Counted from the first letter of the stretch, positions 9,080 through 36,146 are shown. The stretch: DNA of 54,920 bases from Actinomycetota bacterium (GCA_013816725.1 JACDEA010000001.1:1-54920), one strand, 5' to 3'. Program-made: numbers and translations. Notes: generated by a model from the sequence alone, not told the origin.

Positions 9080-9112
9080 GTGGCACGGCAGTGGCACGGC
9101 AGTGGCACGGCT
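9080..9112. repeat. 3 x 11-nt perfect tandem repeat (gtggcacggca)
   Basis: Read directly: gtggcacggca gtggcacggca gtggcacggc. It abuts the stop codon of the Fic gene (9111-9113). Confidence 0.9.
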
Positions 9113-15858: not shown

Positions 15859-16386
15859 GATGCCTCCAGATCTAGGTACTCGGGCCGCGCTGTCGGACCC
15901 GCGATTGTGTGCCCATCGCCTACCCGAAGTCAGCAGCGAGTAAGCGTCGAGAAGAGCGGGTAATGCAGCGTGCTCGCACGACGCACTGACGAAGAGACTC
16001 AGTTCGATCAGGGCAGTACGTGGCACGGAAAGCGCGATGTACGCGTCGACACGGTGCCGGACCCGAAAGTTCAAGCAGCGACAGACGCAATCATCCAGGT
16101 CACCTCGTCGAGAATTTGACGAAGACGACGCCACGAAGTCCAGGCCGTGCGGCCCGGAGATCAAACCGGTACTCGAGTCCCGAGACAGTCGGCCGCGTGA
16201 AACAGAACCGCTGGGTCATGTCCGCGTTGGCGATGCTGCTCGCCGTAGGGTGCCGGAGACTCAGCGTTGTCAGATGACGCTGACGGATGTGGCGACTATC
16301 GCGGAACGGTCATCTAGCGGGCCAGGCGGCGGACTTGATCTCAAGGTACGGGCTCGAAGAAGGCTCGGCGCGGTGAGGGTCGGCGG

Positions 16387-16908: not shown

Positions 16909-17115
16909 GCCTCCGCCGACAAACCCGGTCACCACGCCCGGGCTCTGACGCGTCCGGAGTCGGGTCGCGCGCACCAAGTTGGGTGTTCACAGGCTCGCTG
17001 CGCCCGAACACCTAGCATCAGCATCGCTGTCGGATGCCCGTCACGAGGTTTTGTGCCGCGTTTTCTACAGCCCCCGCCCCCGTAGCTCAGGGGATAGAGC
17101 ATCGGTTTCCTAAAC
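16838..17115 (+). repeat. Copy R2 of the flank + tRNA 5' half block (partner of 8698-8985)
   Basis: See 8698-8985. This copy contains the functional tRNA 5' half. Confidence 0.7.
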
Positions 17116-17147
17116 CGTGTGCGGAGGTTCGAATCCTCCCGGGGGCG
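17076..17147 (+). tRNA. tRNA-Arg (anticodon CCT)
   Basis: Folds by hand: GCCCCCG-TA-GCTC-AGGGGATA-GAGC-A-TCGGT-TTCCTAA-ACCGT-GTGC-GGAGG-TTCGAAT-CCTCC-CGGGGGC-G. 72 nt, no encoded CCA. Confidence 0.9.
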
Positions 17148-17259
17148 CAAGAATAAGTGCAGGTCACAGCGACTTTCTAGGGTGGCTGTAAGGTTCGCTG
17201 AGCCGAGCTGCCCATCCGAATCGCCACTCTTGCCCATCCGATGCGCGATGATGTCAGGC

Positions 17260-18483: not shown

Positions 18484-20013
18484 ATGCGAGGCTTGCAAGC
18501 GCGCGTAGTCGACCGCCTGGACCTCACCAGCGCGCTCCAAGCTGAGGCGGTAGCCAGAAACAGCATCCTTCCGTCCCAGCCGGGCTTGCTCGAGCTGGCC
18601 ACTCAGCAAGCAGGACCGTTCACCGGATGGCTCGCGAGCCAACTCCAGTCTGGACTGCCCGTCGCTCCTCGAGCTGTCGTCAACGCACGAAAGCCTCGCC
18701 ACGGAACGAGGCCAGCACCGATCATGCCAATCCCCGAGAGAGTTGCATATCGATCCATCGTCGACTTCCTTCTTGGCGCCGAAGCGCCAGTCGCGCGCTC
18801 AAGGGAGGACTACCTCAGCTTCATTCGAGGGCCGGTGGACTACGTCATGCACAAGGCGGAGGGCATCCGCACCGTCGGGCTCTTGCTCGACGATGACGAG
18901 ATCAAGTACGTCGTGAAGAGCGATCTCTCGGCGTTCTACGAGTACATCGACCACGGGGTACTCGGCCGATCGTTGATCGCACGCACCCGGAACGTTGAGC
19001 TCGTCGAGGACCTGATGTCGTTCCTCGCGGAGATCGAGGGGCGGAGCTACGGGATCCCCCAGATGTTCGACGCGTCTGATCGCCTCTCCGAGCTGTACGC
19101 CCAGCTGATTCACGATCAGCTCTCACGGCGGGGGTACCTAGTCTGGCGATTCAACGATGACTTCCGCATCGGGGTGTCGGGGTTTGACGTCGCGCTCGAC
19201 GCCATCGAGGCGCTGTCCGAGGAAGCCCGATCCCTCGGCTTGATCATCAACGAGCAGAAGACGGTGAGTCCCAAGTTCGCGACCTACGCCATCGCTACCT
19301 TCGGCCTAGATAGCGTCGACGATGAGATCCCGTCGGACGAGCAGGACGAAGTCGAAGCGGCCGTAGCGGACTACACCGAAATGTTCGGCGACGCAGACGA
19401 TGCGGTCACCCTGCTGCAGCGCGCAGTCTCGGGTGACTACGAGTGGAATCTGAGTGACGTCAGTCAGGACCAGGTCGGCCAGCTACGCCGAGCGATCTGG
19501 AGCGTCGTTCGTGAGCGAGATGCGCGCGCCGTGCCGGCGCTCGTTCCACTTGCGGTCTTCGTGCCGTCGTTGACGCCAGCAATCTGCCGCTACGCCGAGG
19601 CCTTGGCCGAGGAACGGCAGCAAGAGGTCGCAGGTGTCGTTGACACGATCATCGCCCGCGTGTCGCTCGGCGGTTGGCAACGACTGTGGTTCAACCGTCT
19701 GCTCCGGACATCGAAGTTGCTCCTGCAGCCGGCGCCGGGTGATACGACTACGCGTATTCGTTTTGCTGAGGCGTGTGCGGGCGACGGGCGTCACCCAGCC
19801 ACTCGAGCAGAAGCCATTCTGGCGCTTGCTGGTACGGGAACGGTCTCGGTGCGCGAGATCGCTGATTTCCTTGTAACTGAGCCTCGCGCTCTCGCTTCGT
19901 GGTACGTGATGGCTGCGGGCGAATGTGTCCGCACCGAACGCGACCAGAAGGTGCTACGCGGCATCAGCGGTTCGGACCCGCTCTATTCGATGCTCATCGA
20001 CGCGTTGTCATGA
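18484..20013 (+). CDS. Reverse transcriptase-domain protein (UG/Abi-like) with helical C-terminal region
   Basis: Motifs in order: 'PIMPIPERVAYRSIV', 'VVKSDLSAFYEYID', 'GIPQMFDASDRLSELY', 'WRFNDDFRIGV', 'LGLIINEQKTV'. About 230 aa of helical tail. Confidence 0.8.
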   Translation: MRGLQARVVDRLDLTSALQAEAVARNSILPSQPGLLELATQQAGPFTGWLASQLQSGLPVAPRAVVNARKPRHGTRPAPIMPIPERVAYRSIVDFLLGAEAPVARSREDYLSFIRGPVDYVMHKAEGIRTVGLLLDDDEIKYVVKSDLSAFYEYIDHGVLGRSLIARTRNVELVEDLMSFLAEIEGRSYGIPQMFDASDRLSELYAQLIHDQLSRRGYLVWRFNDDFRIGVSGFDVALDAIEALSEEARSLGLIINEQKTVSPKFATYAIATFGLDSVDDEIPSDEQDEVEAAVADYTEMFGDADDAVTLLQRAVSGDYEWNLSDVSQDQVGQLRRAIWSVVRERDARAVPALVPLAVFVPSLTPAICRYAEALAEERQQEVAGVVDTIIARVSLGGWQRLWFNRLLRTSKLLLQPAPGDTTTRIRFAEACAGDGRHPATRAEAILALAGTGTVSVREIADFLVTEPRALASWYVMAAGECVRTERDQKVLRGISGSDPLYSMLIDALS

Positions 20014-20618
20014 TGCTGCTTCCCAAGCCCCTGACCACGATCGGGGATGCAGCAGTTCTGCTCACGCGAACCGCTCTGTACGAGTACCACTCGACGCCGG
20101 CCTTGCTGCTTACATTCGGGCGGATCTTCAGGTCGTCAACGGCGCTGGGCACTTACGAACTCGGCAACGCCCGGGCTCAGGCCTACTTCTTTCGGATTGT
20201 TGCCGTGGTGGACGCGTATACCGACGCTGCCCTCGAGGCGATGTTCCGCGGCGTTGTCCCGCCTTCATCGCCGGCTGCGGTCCGGCTGCTGGAAAGCCAC
20301 TTGCTCGACGCGACGCAACGGTGGGAGTCGCGAAAGAGGTCATTCGCAGACCATCACTCGTTGTCACTTGGGGACGCTGCCAATGGCTTTCCCCAATGGT
20401 CAAAGCTCGACGGCATGATCGAAGTGCGGAACTCGATCGCGCATGGTCTTGGCTCCCTCACGCGCCAGCAACGGCAACATGCGACGAGAACCGCTGGGCG
20501 CTGTAAGCAGGTCGGAGTCCGCATCGAGGCTGGGGAGGTCATCGTCGACAACCCGAGTCTCGTAACGGCCGGAGACGTGGCGGAGGACTTCATCCGTTGG
20601 CTCGATCAGAAGATCTGA
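20010..20618 (+). CDS. HEPN-like protein (Rx4H motif), translationally coupled to the RT
   Basis: ATGA overlap with the RT stop at 20010-20013. 'MIEVRNSIAHGLGS' carries R-N-x-x-x-H. Mostly helical-looking, 202 aa. Confidence 0.6.
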   Translation: MMLLPKPLTTIGDAAVLLTRTALYEYHSTPALLLTFGRIFRSSTALGTYELGNARAQAYFFRIVAVVDAYTDAALEAMFRGVVPPSSPAAVRLLESHLLDATQRWESRKRSFADHHSLSLGDAANGFPQWSKLDGMIEVRNSIAHGLGSLTRQQRQHATRTAGRCKQVGVRIEAGEVIVDNPSLVTAGDVAEDFIRWLDQKI

Positions 20619-20725: not shown

Positions 20726-23700
20726 TCAGGCGAACGACGTGTCGTCGCGCTCCCCCTCATCGCGCATCGAGTGGTAGGTCGCCTTCATGACTTCGTGCTC
20801 GATCATCGCTGCGAGCTCGGGGTTCGTGAGCAGGAGGTTGTAGAGACGCTCGGTGTGTGCCTCCGTATCGAGGATCGCGCTCTTGAACTTCGCGCTGAAC
20901 TCAAGGGCGAAGTTGTCGATTGGGTTGGCCTTGGCGTACGTCTTCAGCTCCTCGTTCGCGCTGAGGGTGATCTGCACCTTCTCGGCCTCGAGCCGGTCGC
21001 GCTCGTCGAGATCGGTCCCGAACCGATCGTTGATTTCGGCGATCAGCTCCGCCAGGCTCGCCTTCATGGCCTCGTGCCTGCCGCCAAGACCCTCACCGAT
21101 GAAGACCTTGGATGCCTCAATCTCGCCGGGCGCGAGCTTGAGGTCTTCGGAGCCGTGACCTTTGAGGCGGAGATGCGTGAGGACAAGGTCGTCGCCAAGG
21201 TCGAGCCCGCCCGTCGCTGCGTCGCGCAGGAGTGTGCGGAGCGCTTTGACGTAAACGTAAAGCTTCTCGAGCTCGGGATCGGTGAAGGGCATGACTTGAG
21301 AGAGGAACGCGTAGGCGCGTGTGAACTGGTCGACGCCGTCCTTCAACGCGTCTTGAGCGTCCTCGGCGAGCTCGCCGAACCGCACCACGGCCGGATCGAG
21401 ATTGGCGTGGATCACCTTCAGGCTGCGCTTCGCAGGATCGACGCCGAAGTACGCCTCAGCCGCCTTGGTGATCTCGATCGGGTCGAAGATGCCTGCACCC
21501 ATGATGCGCGCCCGCAGGTCGTAGAGGACGTTCGCGTCCGTCGGCTCGACGATGACCGCCTCGTAGTAGCGCTGGAATGCGTTGCGGATCTCGTCGGCCT
21601 CGTTGCGAAAGTCGAGAACGAAGGTGTCCGCCTTGCCAGGGGCGCCGCGGTTCAAGCGCGAGAGCGTCTGCACCGCGTTGAGCCCGGACAGCTTCTTGTC
21701 GACGAACATCGTGTGCAGGTACGGCTCGTCGAAGCCCGTCTGGAACTTCTCGGCGACCACCATGACCTGATAGTCGCCGGGTGAGTACGGCGGCTCGCCC
21801 TTGAATCGGCGTGCGGTCTGCGAGTCGGGGAACGCGTTCATCGAGGACTCCGTCACCGACTGCCCGCTGTCGTCGATGACCTCTCCCGAGAACGCCACGA
21901 GCGATTTGATGTCGGTGTACTGGTGCTCGGCGATATGACGGTCGATCGCCTGCTTGTAGCGCACCGCCGCAGCACGCGACTCCGTCACCACCATCGCCTT
22001 CGCCCGACCCCCAAGTGCGGAGCCGGTGTGGGCTCTGAAGTGCTCAACGACGATCGCTGCCTTCTGTCCGATCATGTGCGGGTGCTGCCAAATGAACTTG
22101 CGGATCGCTGAACTGGCCTTGCTGACGTCTACTTCGATCTCTGCGTCATCCGTGGTCGCGAGCCGGAAGTACGTCGAGTACGTCGTGTAGTTGGCGAGCA
22201 CGTCGAGAATGAACTCTTCCTCGATCGCTTGGCGCATCGTGTAGAGGTGGAACGGTCGCTTGACCTTGTCGGGTCCGAGCACCCCAAAGAGCTCCACGGT
22301 CCGATCCTTCGGTGTTGCCGTGAAGGCGAAGAAGCTGAGGTTCGGCTGCCGCCCGCGGGCAGCGACAATCGCCGCCAGGGCTGTTTCCGCGTCGAAGTCG
22401 TCGTCGTCCTCTGACGCGTCCGCTGCCTTGGCCCCGAGCGCCTGCTTGAGCGCCGTCGCAGCGTCGCCTGTCTGGGAGCTGTGCGCCTCGTCGACGATGA
22501 TCGCGAAGCGTTGTGAGGCCAGGTCGACGTCGTCGAGCTTGGCGATTACATGAGGGAACGTCTCCAGCGTGACGGTGACGATCTGGGCCTTGCCTCCGAG
22601 CGCCTTTGCCAGCTCCTCGGACTTCGAGTCCTTCTTGCCCTCGACGCTGACGATCGTCCCGGGGACAGATTCGAACTGGGAGACAGTTGCACGAAGCTGC
22701 TCGTCGAGAGCGCGGCGGTCGGTGACGACGATGATCTTGTCGAAGACCTTGGCGTCATCGTCAGCATGCAGCAGCGAGAGCCGGTGTGCCAGCCAGCCGA
22801 TGGAGTTCGACTTGCCGGAGCCGGCAGAGTGCTGGACGAGGTAGCTCTGGCCGGGGCCGCGTTGTTTCGCGTCTCCCGCTAACCGGACGACGGCGTCCCA
22901 CTGGTGGAAGCGTGGGAAGATCACCGTCGTCCTGGCTGGCTTCTTGTCAAGCGCCGGCTCCACCACACGCTCGACGAAGCGGCCGAGGATGTCGAGCCAC
23001 GAGTCGTACGCCCACACCCGTTCCCACAGGTACGCCGTGGCGTAGCCATCAGGGTTCGGAGGATTGCCCTTCCCGCATGACAATTCACCCGGGGCGCTGC
23101 CCCGGTTGAACGGCAGGAACGCGGTGCTCGCGCCTTCCAGGCGAGTCGTCATGTACGCGAGCCGGGTGTCGACCGCGAAATGAACGAGGGCACGTCGGAA
23201 GAGCACGTCCTTCGAGTCGCGGTCGTGCTCGTACTGCCAGATGGCGTTGTCGACCGTCTGACCATTCAGATGGTGCTTGAGCTCGGCCGTCGCCACCGGC
23301 AGCCCGTTGACCATGAGGCAGAGATCAACACTGTTGCCGTGGGCCGCCGAGTAGCGGAGCTGGCGAGTGACCGTCAGCCGGTTCTTCGAGTACGCCTCCA
23401 CTAGCTCCGGATTCTTGGAGTGCGCTGGTCGAAAGTAGGCAAGGTCGAACCTGACACCCTGCTCCTCGACTCCCTTCCGAAGCACGTGCAGCGTGCCGTG
23501 CTTGTCGAGCTCCGATGCCAGCCGCTGCTTGAACTTGAGCTGCGTCTCGTTGGGGTCGCCGCCGAGGCGATCGATCAGCTTGTTCCACTTCTCGATCTGC
23601 GTCGCGCCGATGAACGCGAGCAGCTCGCTTCCGTCGATGCCGAGCTTGACGTCATAGAAGTCGTTGAGGCCCTGCGTGTAGCCGCCGTGTGCGACGAGCG

Positions 23701-23749
23701 ACTCGACGACGTCGGTCTCAAACTGCCTTTCCTTCACGTGTTCAGGCAT
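20726..23749 (-). CDS. hsdR: Type I restriction enzyme R subunit
   Basis: 1007 aa. 'MPEHVKERQFETDVVESL' N-terminus. 'QHSAGSGKSNSI' Walker A. 'IIVDEAHSSQ' DEAH box. 'TLSRLNR' helicase motif VI-like. Confidence 0.95.
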   Translation of the reverse strand: MPEHVKERQFETDVVESLVAHGGYTQGLNDFYDVKLGIDGSELLAFIGATQIEKWNKLIDRLGGDPNETQLKFKQRLASELDKHGTLHVLRKGVEEQGVRFDLAYFRPAHSKNPELVEAYSKNRLTVTRQLRYSAAHGNSVDLCLMVNGLPVATAELKHHLNGQTVDNAIWQYEHDRDSKDVLFRRALVHFAVDTRLAYMTTRLEGASTAFLPFNRGSAPGELSCGKGNPPNPDGYATAYLWERVWAYDSWLDILGRFVERVVEPALDKKPARTTVIFPRFHQWDAVVRLAGDAKQRGPGQSYLVQHSAGSGKSNSIGWLAHRLSLLHADDDAKVFDKIIVVTDRRALDEQLRATVSQFESVPGTIVSVEGKKDSKSEELAKALGGKAQIVTVTLETFPHVIAKLDDVDLASQRFAIIVDEAHSSQTGDAATALKQALGAKAADASEDDDDFDAETALAAIVAARGRQPNLSFFAFTATPKDRTVELFGVLGPDKVKRPFHLYTMRQAIEEEFILDVLANYTTYSTYFRLATTDDAEIEVDVSKASSAIRKFIWQHPHMIGQKAAIVVEHFRAHTGSALGGRAKAMVVTESRAAAVRYKQAIDRHIAEHQYTDIKSLVAFSGEVIDDSGQSVTESSMNAFPDSQTARRFKGEPPYSPGDYQVMVVAEKFQTGFDEPYLHTMFVDKKLSGLNAVQTLSRLNRGAPGKADTFVLDFRNEADEIRNAFQRYYEAVIVEPTDANVLYDLRARIMGAGIFDPIEITKAAEAYFGVDPAKRSLKVIHANLDPAVVRFGELAEDAQDALKDGVDQFTRAYAFLSQVMPFTDPELEKLYVYVKALRTLLRDAATGGLDLGDDLVLTHLRLKGHGSEDLKLAPGEIEASKVFIGEGLGGRHEAMKASLAELIAEINDRFGTDLDERDRLEAEKVQITLSANEELKTYAKANPIDNFALEFSAKFKSAILDTEAHTERLYNLLLTNPELAAMIEHEVMKATYHSMRDEGERDDTSFA

Positions 23750-24446
23750 TCAGAAGCCCTTCCAAGGGCGCGCCGGTCATCACGGTTGTGATGAGGGCCT
23801 GGCGGCGCTCGTCGAGCAGGCCGAAGCCGCCACTCCCGCGGGGGCCCAGCATCTGCTCGTGCTCAAGTGAGATCGCGTCGAGATGAGCGGTTTCATCATC
23901 GAGGAACTGTGCTCGCATCTCCTGTTCGGCATAGTCCGGCGGGGTTGGGATGCCGATGCTCCCAAGGTCGGCGGCGTTCACCGCCGGGTAGCTGACTCCG
24001 ACAGAGCGCGCAACGACTTCCTCGACGAATGGGCTTGAGCGCAGCCACCAGTACAGGTATCGAGGCTGGACCTGCTCGACCCGTGGCGTAAGAGTCGCGA
24101 AGCCCGTCGATACCACGCAATGGGCGACAGGCGCATCGATGTACGCGATCGCCTTCAAGTAGGTGCGGACTGTCGAGACGATGGAATCGCCGACGCGAAC
24201 GAGACGCCGCGCCCGCGAGGGCGCCGCAGAGAACGGCATCTCGTCGCGGGCTGAGAACGAGCCAGTAGAGCTCACGGTGCTGATATCGATGTAGTCGATT
24301 GTCCGGTCCGGGTCCGTTGTCTCCGGCAGGGACTCGCGGTTGATCGCGGCCACGTTCTTGATTCGCCACCAGGTCCATGCACTCGGCACGTCGCCCATTG
24401 CCGCGTTCAGTGGGGCAGATGAGTGGCGTAGACCGGTTCCGTTCAC
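23742..24446 (-). CDS. hsdS: Type I R-M specificity subunit, half-length (single TRD)
   Basis: 234 aa. 'GDSIVSTVRTYLKAIAYID', 'VVSTGFATLTP' and a C-terminal helical conserved region. GTG start overlaps the stop of the hsdM tail frame. Its stop overlaps the hsdR ATG by 8 nt. Confidence 0.8.
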   Translation of the reverse strand: MNGTGLRHSSAPLNAAMGDVPSAWTWWRIKNVAAINRESLPETTDPDRTIDYIDISTVSSTGSFSARDEMPFSAAPSRARRLVRVGDSIVSTVRTYLKAIAYIDAPVAHCVVSTGFATLTPRVEQVQPRYLYWWLRSSPFVEEVVARSVGVSYPAVNAADLGSIGIPTPPDYAEQEMRAQFLDDETAHLDAISLEHEQMLGPRGSGGFGLLDERRQALITTVMTGAPLEGLLNA

Positions 24447-24618
24447 GGCGCGATCTCCCCGAGCAAGGTGAGGATCCGCTTCTGAGTGAGAGATATGTCC
24501 TTGTCGATCTCACCAATGGGACGTGGCGCGGCGTAACGGTAGAACAGCCGAGTGAATGGGAGTTCGTAGCCGACCTTCGTGCGGGAGTCGTCGATCCACG
24601 CGTCGGGCGCTGCGGGCC

Positions 24619-26475
24619 TCACCTCTGGTCGATGAACTCGTCGATGTCCTCATAAAGGGGGACGTTCTCGGTGTCGCGGAGCTCAGGGTCGGGCTCGAAG
24701 GCCTTGTTCGTCTTCACAGGGTCGGCGTAGGGATCCCTCACCATCGCTGCCGCGATCACTGCCTTCCGGACCGGTGCTCCCAACTTCCCGACCTTCGTCC
24801 AGATCGGCGCCAGAGCCACCTCGAGATCAGCGAGCGTGTCGAAGCTCGAGCCGACCAGACTTGCGATCGCCTCCGTCAGTGCGTCGGCTTGGCCACCGAG
24901 CTTGACCACCGGCGATGCGGTGGAGAGCGCCCTCACCGCCTCGCCGGTGATCGCGTACCGGACCCGGAGCGGGCGTTCGACAGTAACCTTGCGATAGCCG
25001 AACGCTGAGTTCGGCAGGACCTGCGACCGGTCCGTCTCGGCGAAGTCCTCGTACAACTGCGTGATCTGTGTGATCTGGGCGGCGCTGAGCTCGTTGCGCT
25101 TGTTGCCGAGGCTCGGCTTCATCTTCACGAATAGGTCGCGCGCGTCGAGGAGTTGCACGTGCCCTTGCCGCTCTGGTCGCTTCCGGTTCGTGACGACCCA
25201 GATGTAAGTGCTAATTCCGGTGTTGTAAAAGAGCTGGTCGGGCAGGCCGATGATGGCGTCGAGCCAGTCGGTCTCGATGATCCACCGCCGGATTTCACTC
25301 ATCCCGCTACCCGCATCGCCGGAGAAGAGCGGTGACCCGTTGAATACCACAGCGATGCGGCTGCCGCCTTCGTCAACAGCGCGCATACGCGAGATCATCT
25401 GTTGCAGGAAGAGGATTTGCCCGTCGGTCGTGCTGGGCAGGCCGGCGCCGAACCGTCCCTCGAAGCCGAGCTGTGCATGCTCCGCCTTGACTGGCTTCTC
25501 AATCGTCTTCCAGTCCTTGCCGTAGGGCGGATTGGCGAGCATGTAGTCGAACTGCTTGCCGGCAAAGGCCGGACTGGTGGTCTCGTCCCCTCCGTACTTC
25601 GTGAATGTGTCGCCGAACGCGATGTGCGCGTTGCCTTGTCCTTTGAGGAGCATGTCGGTCTTGCAGACGGCGTAGGACTCGGGCTGCACCTCCTGGCCGA
25701 ACAGGTGCATCCGGGCTGAGGGATTGATCGCTCGCAGGTGCTCCTCTGCGACCGACAACATGCCGCCGGTTCCACACGCAGGGTCGTAGACCGTGAAGAT
25801 CTTGCCTGGAGCGAGAAGGCGGTCTTCATCGGCGAACAGGACGTTGACCATGAGCTCAATTACCTCTCGCGGCGTGAAGTGCTCACCGGCTTCCTCGTTC
25901 GAAAGGTCGGCCGTGACGCGGATCAGCTCCTCGTAGATGTACCCCATCTCGAGGTTCGAGACCACGTCTGGATGAAGGTCGATCTCGGCGAACTGCTTGA
26001 CGACCATGTAGAGGATTTCCGCCTCCGCCATCTTGTCGATCTGGTTGGGCAACCCAAACCGGAGCAGTGCGTCACGGGCGTTCGGGGAGAACCCGCGGAC
26101 GTACGCGTGAAAGTTCCGGCTGATGTTGTGCTGATCGGCGAGGAGCGCGCCGAAGGTGAATCTCGAGGCGTTCCAGAAGGGCTGGCCGGCGAGGTGGCTC
26201 AAGACGTCGGTGGCGGCGTCCCACTTGTCGGGCCCGAGTTCGCCTGCCTTCGCGACGACCTTGTCCTTCGTCGGCTCAAGAACGCAGTCGAGTCGACGCA
26301 GCACACATAACGGCAGGATCACGTCTTGGTACTGGTGCCGCTTGTAGTGGTCGCGGAGGGTCTCCTTCACCGACCAAATGAAGGAGATCTTCTCCCGCTG
26401 TTTCGCGCTCAGGCCGGCGGCAGGCGTCGGGACGGTTTCGTCGGTCACCATGGCTCCTCGATCGATGTCAGACAC
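24619..26475 (-). CDS. hsdM: Type I R-M N6-adenine DNA methyltransferase (M subunit); C-terminal ~58 aa continue in another frame to 24443
   Basis: HsdM_N-like 'FIWSVKETLRDHYKRHQYQDVILPLCVLRRLD'. 'VYDPACGTGGML' SAM motif I. 'MLANPPYG' motif IV. Confidence 0.9.
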   Translation of the reverse strand: MSDIDRGAMVTDETVPTPAAGLSAKQREKISFIWSVKETLRDHYKRHQYQDVILPLCVLRRLDCVLEPTKDKVVAKAGELGPDKWDAATDVLSHLAGQPFWNASRFTFGALLADQHNISRNFHAYVRGFSPNARDALLRFGLPNQIDKMAEAEILYMVVKQFAEIDLHPDVVSNLEMGYIYEELIRVTADLSNEEAGEHFTPREVIELMVNVLFADEDRLLAPGKIFTVYDPACGTGGMLSVAEEHLRAINPSARMHLFGQEVQPESYAVCKTDMLLKGQGNAHIAFGDTFTKYGGDETTSPAFAGKQFDYMLANPPYGKDWKTIEKPVKAEHAQLGFEGRFGAGLPSTTDGQILFLQQMISRMRAVDEGGSRIAVVFNGSPLFSGDAGSGMSEIRRWIIETDWLDAIIGLPDQLFYNTGISTYIWVVTNRKRPERQGHVQLLDARDLFVKMKPSLGNKRNELSAAQITQITQLYEDFAETDRSQVLPNSAFGYRKVTVERPLRVRYAITGEAVRALSTASPVVKLGGQADALTEAIASLVGSSFDTLADLEVALAPIWTKVGKLGAPVRKAVIAAAMVRDPYADPVKTNKAFEPDPELRDTENVPLYEDIDEFIDQR

Positions 26476-30062: not shown

Positions 30063-30392
30063 TCACCGGGCAGTGCGAGTGACGGTGGATGCGGGCGCAT
30101 CGCCTGGGCGCGTTCGGGTCGGGCCTTGCTCGCGGCACGTCGGGAGCGGAGTTATCGCGGAGGGCCGACCAACGAGGTCATCGACCGCCCACTTGGGAAT
30201 CACGATGCGGCGGACGTTGAGCCGCAGGGCGTAGAGCTGTCCGTGATCGATCATGTTGCGGACGGTGCCGGCCGAGACTTTCAGGCGCACCGCCACCTCG
30301 CCGACCGTGTACACAAGCGGCGACTGCTGCGGGCCGGGCCAGTGCTGCTCGCCGGCGACCGGCTTCAACGGGGCGCAGTGGTGTCTTTCCAC
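30063..30392 (-). CDS. Excisionase-family (MerR-like) HTH DNA-binding protein
   Basis: 'VYTVGEVAVRLKVSAGTVRNMIDHGQLYALRLNVRRIVIPKWAVDDLV' is the typical excisionase-family helix-turn-helix. Confidence 0.8.
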   Translation of the reverse strand: MERHHCAPLKPVAGEQHWPGPQQSPLVYTVGEVAVRLKVSAGTVRNMIDHGQLYALRLNVRRIVIPKWAVDDLVGRPSAITPLPTCREQGPTRTRPGDAPASTVTRTAR

Positions 30393-30847
30393 GGCACCTC
30401 CTCCCGAAAGTCAAGCTCGGTGGGCGTGTGCGGCCCTGCGGTCGTCATCCAAATCACGGTCCCGGTCACCCTCCCGGTCGCAGTGTGCGGTCCCGATCGC
30501 GAGTCCCGGTTCTGGTGCGGCGATCAGAGCTGCGTGAACGATGCGCCGGCACCCTCAGCGGAATCCTCAGCGCGATAGCCGACGCAACCGTGACCATCCC
30601 GTTGATTGGCGCTGACCGGCTCAGCAAGAACCTCAACGTCGCAGGTCAGAGGCATCAGCGGTTGGGTCACGGTGACGGTGATCTTGGTAGCGGTGACGAA
30701 GTGCGTCAGGAGCGGTCACCAGAGGTGCGTTGACGCGTGAGCCTCAACGCTGCGGCTGTCGACGATCAATCACAGCGCCGCGGCGCCACTGGGTCGCGTC
30801 ACACCGCCGCGTATCGGTAGTGAAGAGATCCGAACCCGAGGAGTCAC

Positions 30848-31105
30848 ATGAGCGAAGCAACCACACCCGCAACGACCGAGAGTCGCAACCGCATCAGGGT
30901 GTTCGTCAACGACCAGCCGTTCTTCGCGCCTGAGCCGACCATGACAGGCGCCGAGATCCTCGCCATGGCGGGCCTACCCGCCGGGAACCACCTGTTTCTC
31001 GAGGTCCCCGGTCCTGGTGACGACCGGCCGATCGGACCCGAGGAACCAATTGAGCTTCGGTCTGGCATGAAGTTCTATGACGTTCCTGTCGGCACCTTCG
31101 GTTGA
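30848..31105 (+). CDS. Small ubiquitin-like (Multiubiquitin-type beta-grasp) protein with free C-terminal Gly
   Basis: GAGGAG RBS 6 nt upstream. 85 aa. 'IRVFVNDQPFFAPEPTMTGAEILAMAGLP...LFLEVPG...IELRSGMKFYDVP' and the end '...VGTFG-stop'. Confidence 0.7.
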   Translation: MSEATTPATTESRNRIRVFVNDQPFFAPEPTMTGAEILAMAGLPAGNHLFLEVPGPGDDRPIGPEEPIELRSGMKFYDVPVGTFG

Positions 31106-31482
31106 GTGCGCTGCGTCCCGGCGAGTGGGACGCTCTAGCGGATCAGTTCGCCGACGCCACGGCGCGCGACGGACCCGACGGGTTGTCGCTGATCACGATC
31201 CCCGCCGTGAAGCTCCCTCCTGGGTGGTCAGCTGGAGCCACGCCGATCAGCTTCGTCCTTCCGGTCGGCTACCCCGCCGCACAACCCGACTGCTTCTGGG
31301 CTTCGGTGGACCTCCGTCTCGCGTCCGGAGCGATGCCGTCAAACAGCGGCGTCCAGCAGATCCCGCACACCCAAACCGAGGCGCTCTGGTTTTCGTGGCA
31401 CCTCGCCAGTTGGCGTCCGGCGACGGACAACATTTCGACCTACGCCCGCTTCGTTCTCAGGAGATTCGCTGATGCCCGCTGA
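31102..31482 (+). CDS. Prokaryotic E2 (UBC-like) family protein
   Basis: TTGA overlap with the Ubl stop. 'ISFVLPVGYPAAQPDCFWAS' has the candidate catalytic Cys codon at 31291-31293. 126 aa. Confidence 0.65.
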   Translation: MSALRPGEWDALADQFADATARDGPDGLSLITIPAVKLPPGWSAGATPISFVLPVGYPAAQPDCFWASVDLRLASGAMPSNSGVQQIPHTQTEALWFSWHLASWRPATDNISTYARFVLRRFADAR

Positions 31483-32836
31483 GCTCCGATTCACCGACGT
31501 GCAGTTCGACCAACTCCGACGTCACCTGCTCGCCGATGACGACGAGCATGCTGCGGTCCTCATTTGCAGCTCCGCTGGCTCGCAACGCGAGCTCCTGCTC
31601 TGTCGTCGAGTGGTCCTGCTGACGGACGCCGACCTTGAGGCCTCGTCCGGACGCCTGCACCTTGATGTCTCGCCGCTCACCCTCGCCCGTGTGACCAAGC
31701 ATGCGCGAGCCGACGGCTGCACTGTTGTCGTGTGCCACTCACATCCCTTCCCCGGCTTCGTGATGGCGTCACGGATCGATCTCGACACCGAACTCGACCT
31801 CTGCGGTCGTGTTCTCCCCGGGCGCCTCGCTGGTCGTCCTTCGGGAGCGCTCATTCTCGGTCCCGATGGCTACGACGCTCGCATCTGGGTTGAAGGAGAA
31901 TCGTCGCCTCTGCGTGTGCGCGTCGCGGGACGGTTGATCGAGAGCGGTCGCAACACGGAACCCGGCTCGGGCGACGAGCCGAGCGCACGCCAGCTCCTGG
32001 TGTGGGGGACGGCAGGTCAACGCCGGCTCCGTGATGCATCGGTCGCGGTCGTGGGAGTCGGCGGGACCGGTTCGCATGTGGCGATACAACTCGCCCACCT
32101 CGGCATCGGGCGGCTTGCGCTTGTCGATCCCGACGTCGTCGAAGCAAGCAACCTCGGACGGCTCGTCGGAGCGACGGCGAACGATGTCGGCCGCCCCAAG
32201 GTGGAGGTGCTTGCATTAGCTGCTGCGGGTATCCGCCCGGAGATCGTCGTCGAGCCCATCGTCCATTCGGTGCTCGACCTCGATGCTGACGTTCTCGCCT
32301 CCAAAGACCTGATTGTGTGCTGCACCGACGGCCACGGATCACGGGCGCTGCTGACCGAGTTGGCCGCCCAGTACCTGGTGACACTCATCGACCTCGGCGT
32401 GGAGGTACAAAGCTCGCAGGGATCAACGCGCGCCGGTGGCGGCGTTCGCATTGTGCGGCCCGGCGCACCTTGCCTTCATTGCATGAACGTGCTCGATTCG
32501 GCGTTGGTGCGCGAGGAGTTCCTGAGCGATGCTCAGCGGGACGAGGAAGAGAAGCGCGGCTACCTCCGCGGTAGTAGTGAGCCCGCTCCTTCAGTCATCG
32601 CTTTGAACGGCGTGATCGCGTCTCTAGCGGTCGTCGAAGTGCTGAATGAGCTACTTGGTCTCTTCGCAGAATCCCCGCGGCGTCTCCTCTACCGCGCTGA
32701 GGCTCGGTCCGTGACAACGGCTGATGCGACAGGCCAGCACGGCTGCTACGTGTGCCGACCGGGCGGCATCACCGGCCTCGGCGACGCCCGTCGGCTGCCA
32801 CGTCGGCAGGCAGAACCGCGCAGGGGATCGGGCTGA
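31472..32836 (+). CDS. JAB/JAMM peptidase fused to ThiF/MoeB-type E1 adenylyltransferase
   Basis: 'EHAAVLICS' and 'CHSHPFPGFVMASRID' fit JAMM E / HxHx7Sx2D. 'VAVVGVGGTGSHVA', 'LVDPDVVEASNLGR' and the CLHC + CYVC zinc pairs fit an E1. Confidence 0.9.
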   Translation: MPAELRFTDVQFDQLRRHLLADDDEHAAVLICSSAGSQRELLLCRRVVLLTDADLEASSGRLHLDVSPLTLARVTKHARADGCTVVVCHSHPFPGFVMASRIDLDTELDLCGRVLPGRLAGRPSGALILGPDGYDARIWVEGESSPLRVRVAGRLIESGRNTEPGSGDEPSARQLLVWGTAGQRRLRDASVAVVGVGGTGSHVAIQLAHLGIGRLALVDPDVVEASNLGRLVGATANDVGRPKVEVLALAAAGIRPEIVVEPIVHSVLDLDADVLASKDLIVCCTDGHGSRALLTELAAQYLVTLIDLGVEVQSSQGSTRAGGGVRIVRPGAPCLHCMNVLDSALVREEFLSDAQRDEEEKRGYLRGSSEPAPSVIALNGVIASLAVVEVLNELLGLFAESPRRLLYRAEARSVTTADATGQHGCYVCRPGGITGLGDARRLPRRQAEPRRGSG

Positions 32837-33063
32837 TGTCTACGCTCTTGGCGATGGACGACTCGACTGCCGCATCCGACGAAGGCGCCAATGTCCTTCC
32901 TGGGGAGCCGCTAGACAGCGGATTTCGCTTTCGGCCAGCGCGCAACGTCCCAGAGGCGCGGCTATCGGACGCAGCTCGAGAGCGAGTGCTCCGCAAGATG
33001 GAGAGTGTCGACGAGGCGCGCCTTCGGGCGGCCAAGGAGGGCCACACCGCCTACGTCGGTTAA
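32836..33063 (+). CDS. Small acidic hypothetical protein ending in Gly
   Basis: ATG overlaps the E1 TGA by 1 nt. 75 aa 'MSTLLAMDDSTAASDEG...AKEGHTAYVG-stop'. Confidence 0.4.
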   Translation: MSTLLAMDDSTAASDEGANVLPGEPLDSGFRFRPARNVPEARLSDAARERVLRKMESVDEARLRAAKEGHTAYVG

Positions 33064-33075
33064 CAGGTCAGCCGC

Positions 33076-34560
33076 ATGAGGTTCTCCGACTGGACGCCAG
33101 CCAACCCCGAGCCCGCCCAGATCGTCGACCTTCGACCGGAGGGCGTGCTCCTGGGTTTGGCTCGCTACTACGAAGGGACGAGACCCGCCGTCGTCCACGA
33201 GGCGCTCGGCCAGGCGTACTCGCTAGGGGCCCAGACCGCGGTGATCGAGTTCCGATACCTCGATCCCGACTACCGCAGCGAACACAGCCGCTTCTACTCC
33301 ACGACGTTCCGGCGCTACCCGTCGGTCGCCCACCGGCTTCACTTCTTCTCCTCGCCACCGCCGGACGAATGGCGCGACCCAGAGCGAAGCCTCGACTTCA
33401 CCTCCCTAGACGCTTCGTACCTCGGTTTCGTCGTGATGCGACCGCTGCCGGGTGCACGGGTCGGGCGAGTGGCGCTGGCCGCGCACGACGATCTCGTGAA
33501 GGACGTCACCTGCATCACACGAGAGCACGTGAACGTCTTCGGCGCGCCGATGTCCATCCGCGCGGCGCCTTTCATGGCTCAGGACGCACAGCTCGGCGTC
33601 TGCGCACACATGGCCCTCTGGGTCGTCGCGCAGCATCACCACCTGGCGTATGGCCGCGCCCGCTGCACTGCAGCGGAGGTCGCTGAGCTAATCCCAACTG
33701 ATCTTGGACTCGGCCGGCCAGCGCCGTCGAGCGGCCTCACAGTGGAACAGTTAGCGGCAGGATGTAGGGCGCTCGGTCTGCCTGCTCTCGTTTACAAATG
33801 CAAGGAGACCACCGACCTTCCTGCGGGCGAGAAGATTCCCGGTGTCGCTTGTCGCTACCTCAACTCGGGTATGCCGGTGATAGTGGCAGCGGGGGGCCAT
33901 CACGCCTTCACGCTCGTCGGATATCGGCGCGTCGATGCCGGCACCAAGGACGAACGCATCCACTTCATCCGTCAGGATGATGAGATCGGTCCGTACCAGG
34001 TTGTCGAGGACTTCGCCCACGACCTTCACGGAAAGTGGGAATGGCTGATCGTTCCGCTGCCATCGAAGGTCTTTGTCCCCGGTGAGATCGCGGAGAGTCT
34101 GGGTAGCGAGCAGATTCTCGAAACGGCAAGCCATTCTCCACATCCGGCGGCACAAGACCTCGTGGCCGAGACGGCCGACCCAACCAACCGCGCCGTCAGC
34201 TTCCGCTCGACGGTGGTGCGTTCGAATCAGTTCAAGGCCAGCCTGGTCGAGCGCGGCTTTGTCCCCGAAGCCGCGGCCCTCTACCGTCGCCTTCCGCTGC
34301 CGCGGTGGATCTGGGTCGTGGAGGCGATCCGCAAGGACGAACGGGAGCAACGTGCTTATGCGGTCGTCGCCGAGGCGGTGATCGACGCCACTGACCACAG
34401 CCGAGACATGCACGTTCTCGCGTGGAGAGTGCCCGGCGCTCTATGGACCTGGCGGCCCGACGAGGACGAGGTGGGTGACCGTGACCTGCCCGACCAGCCG
34501 CTCGTCGACAGTGTCGCCCGGTACACCGCCGACGAGCGGCTCTTGGCGCAGCCAACGTGA
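33076..34560 (+). CDS. 494-aa protein with a central papain-like cysteine peptidase signature
   Basis: 'PFMAQDAQLGVCAHMALW' (Cys codon 33601-33603). 'AAGGHHAFTLVGY' (His codons 33898-33903). 'IHFIRQDDEIG'. Order and spacing resemble papain Q/C...H...N(D). Confidence 0.6.
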   Translation: MRFSDWTPANPEPAQIVDLRPEGVLLGLARYYEGTRPAVVHEALGQAYSLGAQTAVIEFRYLDPDYRSEHSRFYSTTFRRYPSVAHRLHFFSSPPPDEWRDPERSLDFTSLDASYLGFVVMRPLPGARVGRVALAAHDDLVKDVTCITREHVNVFGAPMSIRAAPFMAQDAQLGVCAHMALWVVAQHHHLAYGRARCTAAEVAELIPTDLGLGRPAPSSGLTVEQLAAGCRALGLPALVYKCKETTDLPAGEKIPGVACRYLNSGMPVIVAAGGHHAFTLVGYRRVDAGTKDERIHFIRQDDEIGPYQVVEDFAHDLHGKWEWLIVPLPSKVFVPGEIAESLGSEQILETASHSPHPAAQDLVAETADPTNRAVSFRSTVVRSNQFKASLVERGFVPEAAALYRRLPLPRWIWVVEAIRKDEREQRAYAVVAEAVIDATDHSRDMHVLAWRVPGALWTWRPDEDEVGDRDLPDQPLVDSVARYTADERLLAQPT

Positions 34561-34611
34561 GCCTCGATCCTCGCGCCTGTCACGCGGCCGCGTAGAGGGT
34601 TGGAGGTGCAC

Positions 34612-35178
34612 GTGGACGACGACCTCGAAGCGGAATTGGTGGACAAGGCGAAGCGGGGCGACCCAAGCGCAGGGCCGTTCCTAGTCAGCTTCTACGGCGA
34701 GCGGCTGCTCGGCTACGCCCGCGGCCACGCTCCCGATCTGTCCGACGCCGACCGGGAGCACATCGTCGAGTTGGCGATCGAGGCAGGCGTGCGAGCAATG
34801 CGAAGCTTCGACCCTGCGAAGGGGACGCTCCGGTCTTGGTTCCGCACGCAGGTTCGGTACAAGACCCTCGCATGGCGTCGCTCAACTCCGCCGACCAGCG
34901 AGCTCGCGCCGGAGCTGGCCGAGCCAACCATCGACACAACGCCGCCCGACCCGGCCATCACCGACGCACTGCATCGCGCGATCGCGCGGCTGAGCCATGA
35001 CGACCAGGTCGTGCTCGCGCTCCGTGACGCTGAGCGCCTCGACTATTGCGAGATAGCGCAGCGACTAACTATCAACGAGGCGACTGCACGACAGCGGCAC
35101 AGCCGAGCCCGCAAGCGTTTGCGGGACGAGGCCCGAGGCGAGGCCGCGCTTCACCACCTCGATGAGGAGATGAACTAA
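34612..35178 (+). CDS. ECF-type sigma-70 family factor
   Basis: GGAGG RBS before GTG 34612. Region 2 'FDPAKGTLRSWFRTQVRYKTLAWRR'. Region 4 'LSHDDQVVLALRDAERLDYCEIAQRLTINEATARQRHSRARKRL'. Confidence 0.8.
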   Translation: MDDDLEAELVDKAKRGDPSAGPFLVSFYGERLLGYARGHAPDLSDADREHIVELAIEAGVRAMRSFDPAKGTLRSWFRTQVRYKTLAWRRSTPPTSELAPELAEPTIDTTPPDPAITDALHRAIARLSHDDQVVLALRDAERLDYCEIAQRLTINEATARQRHSRARKRLRDEARGEAALHHLDEEMN

Positions 35179-35735
35179 TGACCAACGATGGAGGGGCACC
35201 TGACGTGAACCCCACGCCCGAGGACCAGCTAGGAGAGCTGATCTCAGAGATTGGGCTCGGTCTCTTTCCCGGCGATGTGCAGGACGAGGTGGAAGCGATC
35301 CTCGCCGCTGGTCAGTCGCTCGAGCCAGCAACGCGCGCTCGATTCGTCGACGCCGCCAAGCGGGGAACCCGCCAGATCGCTTTCTCACTCTCGACACTCG
35401 AGGTCCTGCTATTCAACAGCCGACGCGAGCAGAACCAGGCTCCCGAAGAGCTTGGGACCATCGTGCACATCGAGCCGGAAGTCATCCGCGCCATCGAACG
35501 AGGCGAGCGCACGATCGACAGCGAGGACGCAGAGAAGATCGCTGCGTGGGCCGACAGGCTCGGGCTTCAGACGAAAGTCGTCGGCCCCGCACTTCGTCGG
35601 AGCCTCGGCACGCCGGTGAGCGCTGCGTCCTACGCCGGTGAGCGCGAACTCCGCCTGACGCCGGAACAGGACGACTTTGTTCAGCGAGTCGTGCGCGCTC
35701 TAGATGAAAGGAACGACACGGCAACAGCTGAATAG
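35178..35735 (+). CDS. XRE-like HTH protein (possible anti-sigma/regulator)
   Basis: ATG overlaps the sigma TAA by 1 nt. 'LLFNSRREQNQAPEELGTIVHIEPEVIRAIERGERTID' is an XRE-type HTH. Confidence 0.65.
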   Translation: MTNDGGAPDVNPTPEDQLGELISEIGLGLFPGDVQDEVEAILAAGQSLEPATRARFVDAAKRGTRQIAFSLSTLEVLLFNSRREQNQAPEELGTIVHIEPEVIRAIERGERTIDSEDAEKIAAWADRLGLQTKVVGPALRRSLGTPVSAASYAGERELRLTPEQDDFVQRVVRALDERNDTATAE

Positions 35736-35947
35736 GCGGCAAGCGCAGGGCGGCGACGATCTGGGCTGGCGGCCTCGTAGGGAAAGGCCACCCCAACTTT
35801 CGCCGTGAGGACGACGCAGGAGTTGCCCATCAAACTGCCCGTCTCGTCAACGAAACTCGCTGCTTTCGACAGAACCCATTGAGTTAACCCGTGCGCGCAA
35901 CGTGCTTCTTTGCGCTGGATGCGCTCAACGGCACACCCCCGAACTGG

Positions 35948-35991
35948 TTCCTAAACCGTGTGCCCAGGTTCGAATCCTGGCGGGGGCGCAA
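35948..35991 (+). repeat. tRNA-Arg 3' half copy 2 (att-type direct repeat)
   Basis: 'ttcctaaaccgtgtgcCCAGGttcgaatCCTGGcgggggcgcaa' versus the tRNA 'ttcctaaaccgtgtgcGGAGGttcgaatCCTCCcgggggcgcaa'. Confidence 0.85.
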
Positions 35992-36146
35992 GCGAAAACA
36001 CAGGGTGACCATTGCCAAGACCAGGGTTTATGTCACGACTCGATTGGCTGCAGTGACCGCCGATGGCCCGCGATTCACCGTCGTAATTGGGAAGAGCGTG
36101 GGAAGGATTTCGTGACCTTGGGTGATTATCTCGGGTCGAGCTGCGT

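Follow-up and report, generated by a model that had tools for sequence, protein, structure and literature searches.

A putative sigma-gated, Bub-like conjugation operon on an integrative defence island in a tRNA-Arg gene of an actinobacterium

The bacterial conjugation operons of class 6e, which centre on a ubiquitin-like protein (Ubl), were predicted by Iyer, Burroughs & Aravind in 2006 (PMC1779556), and class 6E was characterised as Bub in the period 2024–2026, with Type I Bub corresponding to the 6E.1/DUF6527 system (Ye, Gong, Chambers & Corbett, bioRxiv 10.1101/2024.11.21.623953). In Type I Bub the Ubl and the E2 are made as one BubAB pre-protein that is cut by BubC, and Ye et al. (bioRxiv 10.1101/2024.11.21.623953) showed that BubCD holds the Ubl in oxyester linkage on its tyrosine Y370. 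According to the Bub papers, BubE, a Ser-His protease of family DUF6527 (PF20137), is encoded in all Bub operons. The systems were defined via the DUF6527 gene, and their target and phenotype are still lacking. Here we describe an operon of seven open reading frames (ORF1 to ORF7, positions 30,848 to 35,735) from an Actinomycetota bacterium (GCA_013816725.1), located in a stretch of 54,920 nucleotides (nt; JACDEA010000001.1:1-54920) that we refer to as the window. Judged from its sequence, ORF1 to ORF3 is a Bub-type conjugation core of the 6E lineage, and it is followed by a small protein, a predicted cysteine protease, a sigma factor of the extracytoplasmic function (ECF) type and a protein with a helix-turn-helix (HTH) domain of the XRE type.

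The reading that we favour, at somewhat better than even confidence, is that of a composite system in which a Bub-like core is gated by a sigma factor and is carried by an integrative, mobilisable defence island inserted in a tRNA-Arg gene. The locus is made up of three modules, Ubl-E2-JAB/E1, ORF4-ORF5 and sigma-ORF7, which are distinguished because the gene sets occur separately across related loci. All seven genes lie on the same strand (Table 1), with overlaps of 4 nt (ORF1/ORF2), 11 nt (ORF2/ORF3) and 1 nt (ORF3/ORF4 and ORF6/ORF7) and with gaps of 12 nt between ORF4 and ORF5 and 51 nt between ORF5 and ORF6, when GTG 34612 is taken as the ORF6 start. An initial annotation had proposed this arrangement, and its reading frames, overlaps, gaps and quoted motifs are all present at the positions that it gave. 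Profile matches sustained its assignment of ORF1 to ORF3 as a Ubl/E2/JAB-E1 operon, the match to Prok-JAB being weak, and of ORF6 as an ECF sigma factor, while the papain-like peptidase was recovered as a C39/papain-like domain in the predicted structure of ORF5. The XRE HTH of ORF7 gave a weak profile match that was firmed by its homologues and fold.

ORF1 ends in FYDVPVGTFG, with a free glycine ahead of the stop codon, and across 18 relatives the terminal glycine of the motif FYDVPVG[TN][FL]G never varies; in five of these it is followed by two more residues, AR or AV, a tail that would need trimming. ORF2 holds the motif GYPAAQPDCFW, in which the lone cysteine, C64, is next to D63. Its candidate catalytic residues D63, S98 and H100 are invariant in the clade and align with D299, S333 and H335 of BubB, and an FSWH motif is also invariant. 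When a profile of the E2 family was compared with the whole Protein Data Bank (PDB), the sole match was Citrobacter BubB (5.6e-8), with the Asp, Ser and His residues aligned; a single-sequence ORF2 search of the same database was uninformative (E about 1).

ORF3 carries CHSHPFPGFVMASRID, VAVVGVGGTGSHVA and LVDPDVVEASNLGR together with two CxxC pairs, CLHC and CYVC, and its residues 11-404 match the sequence of the Citrobacter BubCD crystal structure (9ea4) with E=1.7e-38. The assigned residues comprise the JAMM set E25, H89, H91, S100 and D103, an ATP site at G195-G200 with R230, and the crossover-loop tyrosine Y364, which corresponds to BubCD Y370 in the alignment of KRGYLRG with ERGYITG. Among 23 relatives of ORF3, Y364, the JAMM residues, the ATP-site glycines, R230 and both CxxC pairs are at least 95% conserved, and the only cysteines near the crossover loop are those of the CxxC pairs, which are of the zinc type. 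Retention of the E1 tyrosine and of the Asp/Ser-x-His residues of the E2 favours an oxyester mechanism, so that a route via the E1 Tyr and the E2 Ser appears more likely than a thioester on a "Cys-type E2", the description given in the initial annotation and one that is probably wrong. In the public annotation ORF3 appears as a 306-amino acid (aa) "ThiF family adenylyltransferase" (P0125), from which the JAB/JAMM domain has been dropped, and many of its relatives were named automatically as molybdopterin or thiamine adenylyltransferases by the Joint Genome Institute (JGI) pipeline. As a result of this truncation and misnaming the system is invisible in standard annotation.

For the downstream genes, we compared 89 loci centred on ORF5 homologues, mostly from metagenome-assembled genomes (MAGs) of Actinomycetota, and the partner systems were typed in 25 non-redundant loci for which both flanks were available. 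Neither ORF4 nor ORF5 yielded any match in Pfam (E<=1 for ORF5), NCBIfam or PADLOC. ORF4 starts with a motif of the SGF type and ends with a helix and a tail that varies between loci; it is 47-70% identical to its counterparts in close loci (tblastn), and its family lies directly upstream of ORF5 in loci linked to Ubl genes and in those linked to the cyclic oligonucleotide-based anti-phage signalling system (CBASS) alike. The tail tracks the partner: it has the form HLGGxxPR in CBASS-linked loci, and also in L059, where the flank is too short for typing, whereas Ubl-linked loci have tails of the forms Y[VI]G, DYLIx or DYPVS. The description of ORF4 as a Gly-terminal protein therefore holds for this operon but not for the family, whose members end in YLIS, YPVS, HLGGxxPR or other tails. 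A function as a Pup-like or Ubl-like modifier was considered and dropped on account of the non-conserved C-terminus, and the variability of the terminal glycine makes a second conjugated modifier unlikely.

ORF5 belongs to a very large family. A word-indexed search retrieved 295 unannotated homologues, and an exhaustive search yielded 4,411 cluster representatives at 50% identity, 1,385 of them at E<=1e-30; phage-encoded homologues were searched for and none were found. The AlphaFold2 model (predicted local distance difference test score, pLDDT, 87; predicted TM score, pTM, 0.90) contains a middle domain (residues ~145-330) that matches the C39 domains of ComA, LahT and PCAT1 in Foldseek, with target TM scores of 0.64-0.68 and a probability of 1.0, followed by staphopain, and the invariant residues Q172, C176, H276 and D301/D302 complete a putative peptidase site. 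On the strength of this model ORF5 is predicted to be a cysteine protease. It resembles Peptidase C39 in its fold and in the catalytic order Gln, Cys, His, Asp, but it gives no match to the Pfam Peptidase_C39 sequence profile (E<=1). Unlike the C39 leader peptidases it is cytoplasmic, lacks fusion to an ABC transporter, and carries two conserved flanking domains without structural match, since Foldseek with the whole model found nothing for either the N-terminal or the C-terminal (alpha/beta) domain.

The N-terminal domain of ORF5 includes an invariant charged cluster (E58, R60, Y61, D63, D65, R67, E69) followed by FRRY and by R87 and H89. Over residues 50-140 (33076-33500) the motif reads E-x-R-Y-x-D-x-D-[YF]...FY...F...R-[LV]-H-FF and continues with YLG[FY]-x-V-x-[RK]-P. 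Relatives in four phyla share this motif, with Pseudomonas and Hymenobacter as well as Actinomycetota among them; part of it is modelled with low confidence, and it may constitute a ligand- or substrate-binding site.

ORF6 matches Sigma70_r4_2 (2e-11) and Sigma70_r2 (6e-4), and the TIGR02937 match spans regions 2 and 4. An alternative start at the upstream TTG 34600 was rejected; the homologues begin with MDD, which fits GTG 34612. ORF7 itself shows a weak match to HTH_3 (0.0086), its homologues give stronger ones (HTH_31, about 1e-6), and its profile matches the HTH domains of ClgR and DdrO at about 1e-3. The AlphaFold2 model of ORF7 (pLDDT 78) begins with helices that lead into a canonical XRE HTH (residues ~74-144), from which a disordered linker runs to a helix at the C-terminus, and its Foldseek matches include C.Esp1396I, DdrO, SinR and the N-terminal domain of CapH (TM score 0.78). 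The linker carries a motif of small residues, S-Y-A-G (151-154), which is replaced by AAG, YAG or FGG in relatives. It is altered in the two loci that lack ORF5, although with two cases this is a hint only.

A 16-bp sequence with the consensus cCTGTCAC[A/G]-N6-CG[T/G/A]A, equivalent to GTCAC-N7-CGNA, occurs twice at the operon (Table 1). In related loci the spacing is fixed and the element always lies on the coding strand; it is found upstream of the Ubl gene in all 22 non-redundant loci, mostly 47-73 nt before the start, and in the gap between ORF5 and the sigma gene in 44 of 53 non-redundant loci, with four more showing one mismatch. In all, 117 matches were counted, where shuffled sequences would lead one to expect 23. 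It is also present in the ORF5-less locus L092 and in CBASS-linked loci, where it precedes the genes for sigma, HTH, CD-NTase, HORMA, TRIP13 and TIR-SAVED. Copy 1 is a candidate promoter of the Ubl-E2-E1-ORF4-ORF5 unit, and copy 2 a candidate autoregulated promoter of the sigma gene. Comparative genomics establishes the pairing of element and genes, and we infer that ORF6 reads the element. No sigma-70-type promoter was found in 30300-36100.

Two other interpretations of the element were rejected: GTCAC-N16-18-GTGA, as a palindromic operator, occurs in only 11 of 20 Ubl-upstream sites and in only three of 43 sigma-upstream sites, and for a -35/-10 pair with a 16-nt spacer nothing is conserved at the expected place except the Shine-Dalgarno sequence. 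The geometry, shared by the copies in the window (30796-30813 and 34577-34594) and those of 60+ related loci, resembles that of sigma-54 promoters (-24/-12), a type that Actinomycetota are not expected to use. The ECF41 promoter has the sequence TGTCACA-n16-CGTC (Wecke et al. 2012, PMC3426412), and the half-sites TGTCAC[A/G] and CGTA resemble the -35 and -10 boxes of such SigJ-type promoters and likewise occur upstream of their own sigma gene. In contrast to these promoters, the spacer after TGTCACA is 6 nt rather than 16 +/- 1, some 10 bp less than any ECF promoter has, and ORF6 lacks the C-terminal extension of ECF41 sigmas.

The gene neighbourhoods show that ORF4 to ORF7 are conserved yet separable and are not Ubl-specific partners. 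Of the 52 non-redundant loci whose sequence extends far enough past ORF5, 48 have a sigma gene next. The initial annotation had joined all seven genes in one system, and among the 25 well-flanked loci the Ubl-E2-JAB/E1 genes do lie directly upstream of ORF4-ORF5 in 13; but in seven others, which lack Ubl or E1, the order ORF4-ORF5-sigma-HTH leads into a complete Type III CBASS, with matches to CD-NTase (2e-113), HORMA (2.6e-60), TRIP13 (4e-119) and TIR-SAVED. Among the remaining five, L016 and L018 have JAB-E1 elsewhere in the locus, and L005 and L057 carry Multi_ubiq with a DUF6791-ThiF fusion, which is found as well in L004 and L036 from the wider set of 89. In these four loci a Multi_ubiq protein of 84 aa and a DUF6791-ThiF protein of about 390-430 aa stand beside ORF4-ORF5-sigma (e.g., L005 7993-9397, - strand), and the gap between ORF5 and the sigma gene is without the TGTCAC-N7-CGTA element. 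Look-ups centred on the E1 found sigma and HTH genes after it in six of six ORF3 relatives.

Further occurrences of the pair are varied. Outside Actinomycetota, a small ORF and an ORF5-like protein lie beside an unfused set of Multi_ubiq, E2 and JAB-E1 on a Mesorhizobium plasmid, and in Hymenobacter such a pair adjoins a helicase. A TrlF-like ATPase neighbours another pair. In an Acidothermaceae MAG (L007, 5949-16000) the order ORF4-ORF5-sigma-HTH with Type III CBASS is located directly downstream of nrdR and a class II ribonucleotide reductase, in no obvious mobile element. In two loci centred on the E1 the position of ORF5 holds shortened ORFs of 257 aa (L097, 8312-9085) and 225 aa (L099, 8025-8702), which may be decayed or frameshifted protease genes.

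Combining these observations, the following sequence of events can be proposed. The E1 domain of ORF3 would adenylate the C-terminal glycine of the Ubl, which most likely, to judge by the retained residues, would pass via an oxyester on Tyr364 of the E1 to an oxyester on Ser98 of the E2, assisted by His100 and Asp63, and would finally be attached to a lysine of some target; the JAB domain of ORF3 would trim C-terminal tails, strip conjugates, or both. ORF6 and ORF7 would control both copies of the element, one driving ORF1 to ORF5 and the other autoregulating the sigma gene, with sigma-ORF7 read from copy 2 and, in CBASS-linked loci, the CBASS genes expressed by read-through. ORF7 would restrain ORF6 until ORF4-ORF5 received a signal of infection or stress, whereupon ORF5 would cut the exposed, Ala/Gly-rich linker of ORF7, so that the sigma factor would be released and the operon induced. 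Cleavage of ORF7 by the protease would have precedents in CapP/CapH, IrrE/DdrO and CalpL/CalpT/CalpS, and a signal receiver that inactivates ORF7 is the role that we prefer for the cassette, possible though not probable; an XRE HTH like those of CapH and DdrO, together with a disordered linker bearing a YAG/AAG motif, points weakly to ORF7 as the substrate. Taken as a whole, the unit most likely serves, once induced, in the response to phage or to stress. This predicted role is in keeping with a defence-associated reverse transcriptase (DRT) and a type I restriction-modification (R-M) system on the same island and with relatives that adjoin MmeI, Type ISP and integrases. A bolder proposal, tentative enough that we lean against it, is that ORF4 to ORF7 form an undescribed protease-gated ECF sigma switch, reading a compact TGTCAC-N7-CGTA promoter, that has been swapped in Actinomycetota between Bub-like systems and Type III CBASS, and that ORF4-ORF5 alone represents a new kind of cassette, sensor or effector, which mobile elements have spread widely through different phyla.

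Several findings weigh against the sigma-gated composite. Phage protection by Bub systems has so far not been demonstrated, and no recognisable anti-sigma domain (ASDI/ZAS; zf-HC2/RskA-type) was detected in ORF7, only the XRE HTH. The 7-bp spacing of the element fits no known ECF -35/-10 geometry (16 +/- 1), and the element could be an operator for ORF7 instead of a promoter. L092/L093 and L098 have a Ubl system with sigma-HTH and neither ORF4-ORF5 nor BubE, which implies that regulation can do without the protease. Outside Actinomycetota, ORF4-ORF5-like pairs also occur alone beside integrase and HTH_17 genes on mobile elements. The Pseudomonas aeruginosa plasmid p4782_002 (L103; NZ_OX638702.1, 2217-9010), from a clinical isolate, encodes ImmA/IrrE and HTH proteins resembling CapP/CapH together with multiubiquitin, ThiF and DUF6527, constituting a Type II Bub, and this complete operon is followed by a 55-aa ORF and a 726-aa ORF5-like protein; since the locus already possesses CapH/CapP and BubE, the pair can be argued to have a function of its own. 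For the oxyester step itself, C64 is kept in 10 of 11 E2s of the clade, being replaced by Asn in L075, and by Met in BubB. This conservation, and the position of C64 as the sole cysteine of ORF2, would favour a canonical thioester cascade via Cys64, with ORF4 as a second Gly-terminal modifier, as the Y-V/I-G ends of ORF4 here and in close relatives might suggest. Such a cascade is nevertheless very unlikely: C64 aligns to the residue after BubB D299, off the catalytic position, and is replaceable; the crossover loop of the E1 has an invariant tyrosine and no cysteine outside the zinc-type pairs; and ORF4, besides its variable C-terminus, is present in loci without E1.

Alternative functions for ORF4-ORF5 turn on how closely the pair is tied to its neighbours. 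The pair may be an autonomous cassette, for example a protease effector with a small cognate inhibitor in the style of toxin-antitoxin or abortive-infection systems, that is merely co-transcribed with adjacent defence genes. The very large size of the family, the small ORF that always precedes the protease and the pairs that lie alone or by a helicase or a TrlF-like ATPase are all consistent with this; moreover, staphopain, whose inhibitor staphostatin is encoded in the same operon, is among the structural matches of ORF5. We consider it doubtful, given that the sigma gene comes next in most Actinomycetota loci with the candidate promoter element in the intervening gap, that the start of ORF4 overlaps the stop of the E1 gene in this operon, and that the type of ORF4 tail co-varies with the partner system. 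Alternatively, ORF5 could be a Ubl-specific peptidase that replaces BubE/DUF6527 and cuts Ubl conjugates or precursors after the C-terminal glycine, with the sigma-HTH pair regulating independently. C39 peptidases cleave after Gly-Gly-type motifs, to be compared with the G-x-x-G end of the Ubl; DUF6527 is missing from the operon proteins and from six E1-centred loci; and ORF4-ORF5-like pairs stand beside at least four Ubl/E1 architectures (unfused, Multi_ubiq with DUF6791-ThiF, the Mesorhizobium plasmid and the Pseudomonas Type II Bub). This substitution is nonetheless unlikely in view of the seven Type III CBASS loci, the absence of both ORF5 and BubE from the Ubl loci L092 and L098, the co-occurrence of BubE with an ORF5-like protein in the Pseudomonas locus, the distant ORF5 members that stand alone and the intact JAB already present in ORF3. 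Finally, the names assigned by NCBI and JGI to ORF3 and its relatives might be taken to mean that a housekeeping sulfur-carrier pathway (ThiF/MoeB with ThiS/MoaD) has been misread as conjugation. This is scarcely credible for an element bounded by attachment (att) repeats with no adjacent genes for thiamine or molybdenum cofactor, in which the E1 is fused to JAB and partnered by an E2 and a Multi_ubiq Ubl, and in which all ThiF/MoeB equivalog scores of ORF3 fall far under the cut-offs.

The initial annotation placed the operon on a mobile defence island next to type I R-M and a reverse transcriptase (RT)/HEPN pair, and the wider context agrees. The integrative element is ~18.9 kb long and bounded by two 45-nt direct repeats that are 91% identical; it starts with the left repeat, in the tRNA-Arg gene, and the integrase lies directly downstream of that repeat. 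The cargo runs in the order integrase, DRT-type RT with HEPN, hsdR/hsdS/hsdM, TrwC relaxase-helicase, HTH_17 protein (excisionase-like) and finally, next to the right repeat, the seven-gene operon; beyond that repeat lies a methyltransferase gene resembling the core genome. At 18484-20618 (+ strand) the RT, an RT_UG22 DRT (PADLOC, 2e-116), overlaps the start of RTasHEPN (1.4e-32); with Pfam, this pair gives a sub-threshold RVT_1 match only, and none for the partner. The type I R-M system is complete and occupies 20726-26475 on the - strand (HsdR 20726-23749, HsdS 23742-24446, HsdM 24619-26475), with an unassigned 59-aa ORF (24443-24622, - strand) between hsdS and hsdM. Outside the tRNA-bounded island, beside a large catalase gene (13678-16164), two Fic/DOC proteins at 9111-10334 (-) and 12199-13491 (+) match PADLOC SoFic (4.5e-89 and 8.5e-70). 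A search of the operon with Rfam found no RNA.

Table 1. Genes of the operon, element copies and insertion-site features, in coordinates of the window.
Feature	Position	Strand	Description	Basis
ORF1	30848..31105	+	85-aa ubiquitin-like protein, one Multi_ubiq beta-grasp domain	PF14452 1.7e-12
ORF2	31102..31482	+	126-aa E2-like protein, Prok-E2_E, BubB-like	PF14462 3.6e-9
ORF3	31472..32836	+	454-aa JAB/JAMM peptidase-E1 adenylation fusion, BubCD-like	ThiF 1.2e-39; Prok-JAB 6.5e-4
ORF4	32836..33063	+	75-aa small protein, no family match	tblastn homologues
ORF5	33076..34560	+	494-aa predicted three-domain C39/papain-fold cysteine peptidase	AlphaFold2 model, Foldseek, invariant residues
ORF6	34612..35178	+	ECF-type sigma-70 family factor, regions 2 + 4	TIGR02937 7.6e-16
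ORF7	35178..35735	+	185-aa putative sigma partner with XRE HTH	Alignment, AlphaFold2 model, Foldseek
Element copy 1, GTCACACCGCCGCGTA (GTCAC-N7-CGTA)	30798..30813	+	50 nt upstream of Ubl start codon	
Element copy 2, GTCACGCGGCCGCGTA	34579..34594	+	ORF5-ORF6 gap, just before Shine-Dalgarno of sigma gene	
tRNA-Arg(CCT)	17076-17148			ARAGORN + Rfam
Left 45-nt direct repeat (attL-like)	17107..17151	+	Within 3' half of tRNA-Arg(CCT)	
Right 45-nt direct repeat (attR-like)	35948..35992	+	Island end, 213 nt past ORF7	

The claim that the combination of genes was not recognisable from any described system stands in part. The four downstream genes are missing from PADLOC and from the Bub and Cap papers accessible to us; the core, by contrast, belongs to the described 6E/Bub lineage. 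A literature search, with most subscription journals outside its reach, retrieved no account of the sigma/HTH pair and its element, of the ORF5 family, or of a BubE-less branch with split genes. There is a moderately high chance that the locus contains a new controller or sensor module. A sigma factor with a sharply defined element would provide an experimental handle on the inducer of a Bub-type system, and a spacing of 6-7 nt would depart from what is usual among sigma-70-family factors. In addition, a very large unannotated family of predicted cysteine proteases, which clustering at 50% identity divides into about 4,400 groups, is now linked to ubiquitin-like and CBASS immunity. Should ORF5 not be the switch that releases the sigma factor, the ORF4-ORF5 pair would in its own right be a candidate for a new cassette in defence or sensing.

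In comparison with Type I Bub, the locus shares a Multi_ubiq Ubl with a C-terminal glycine, a Prok-E2_E protein in which the Asp and Ser-x-His residues are kept, a full-length BubCD homologue with the JAB-E1 fusion, the crossover-loop tyrosine and no catalytic cysteine, and a position in a tRNA-inserted mobile element. It differs in that the Ubl and E2 are separate ORFs, with the stop codon exactly at the point where BubAB is cleaved, an arrangement that holds in all related loci. BubE (PF20137) gave no match at E<=1 in the seven operon proteins, the rest of the window not having been exhaustively scanned, and DUF6527 is lacking from the precomputed Pfam tables of six E1-centred relatives. Further differences are the two CxxC pairs of ORF3, which Citrobacter BubCD does not have, the clade-conserved cysteine beside the E2 aspartate, the ORF4-ORF5 cassette, and a dedicated sigma/HTH pair in place of the CapW, CapH+CapP or CapK+CapS found in Bub. 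Owing to the separate Ubl and E2 genes and the missing BubE, the locus is classified as a sister variant of Type I Bub and not as a member, and catalogues keyed on DUF6527 would miss this sizeable actinobacterial branch.

The closest parallels for the downstream genes are proteolytic controllers of immune and stress operons. In CapH+CapP, as in DdrO/IrrE, a repressor with an XRE HTH is cut by a stress-activated protease, and such pairs control CBASS, Bub and other immune operons. Here too, an XRE-HTH protein and a predicted protease lie next to, and are common to, unrelated defence operons, Bub-like or Type III CBASS, and in ORF7, as in CapH, a flexible linker joins the HTH to a helix at the C-terminus. 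Unlike CapP, however, ORF5 is a predicted C39/papain-fold Cys enzyme without a match to M78/IrrE zinc metallopeptidases, and the present arrangement departs from CapH+CapP in the interposed ECF sigma factor, in an asymmetric rather than palindromic DNA element and in a cleavage of ORF7 that is only predicted. Switches composed of a protease, an anti-sigma factor and an ECF sigma factor are known from CalpL-CalpT-CalpS, associated with type III CRISPR (clustered regularly interspaced short palindromic repeats), and from DdvA-DdvS in the CBASS-CRISPR island of Myxococcus (PMC11506125). The operon described here resembles both in having a dedicated ECF-type sigma factor, a partner and a protease within a defence locus, and by analogy the expected logic would be the same, namely proteolytic release of the sigma factor. 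It differs from them in lacking SAVED-Lon, TPR-CHAT and zinc anti-sigma domains, with no cyclic-nucleotide sensor domain recognised in ORF5, and in having a soluble partner that carries an XRE HTH.

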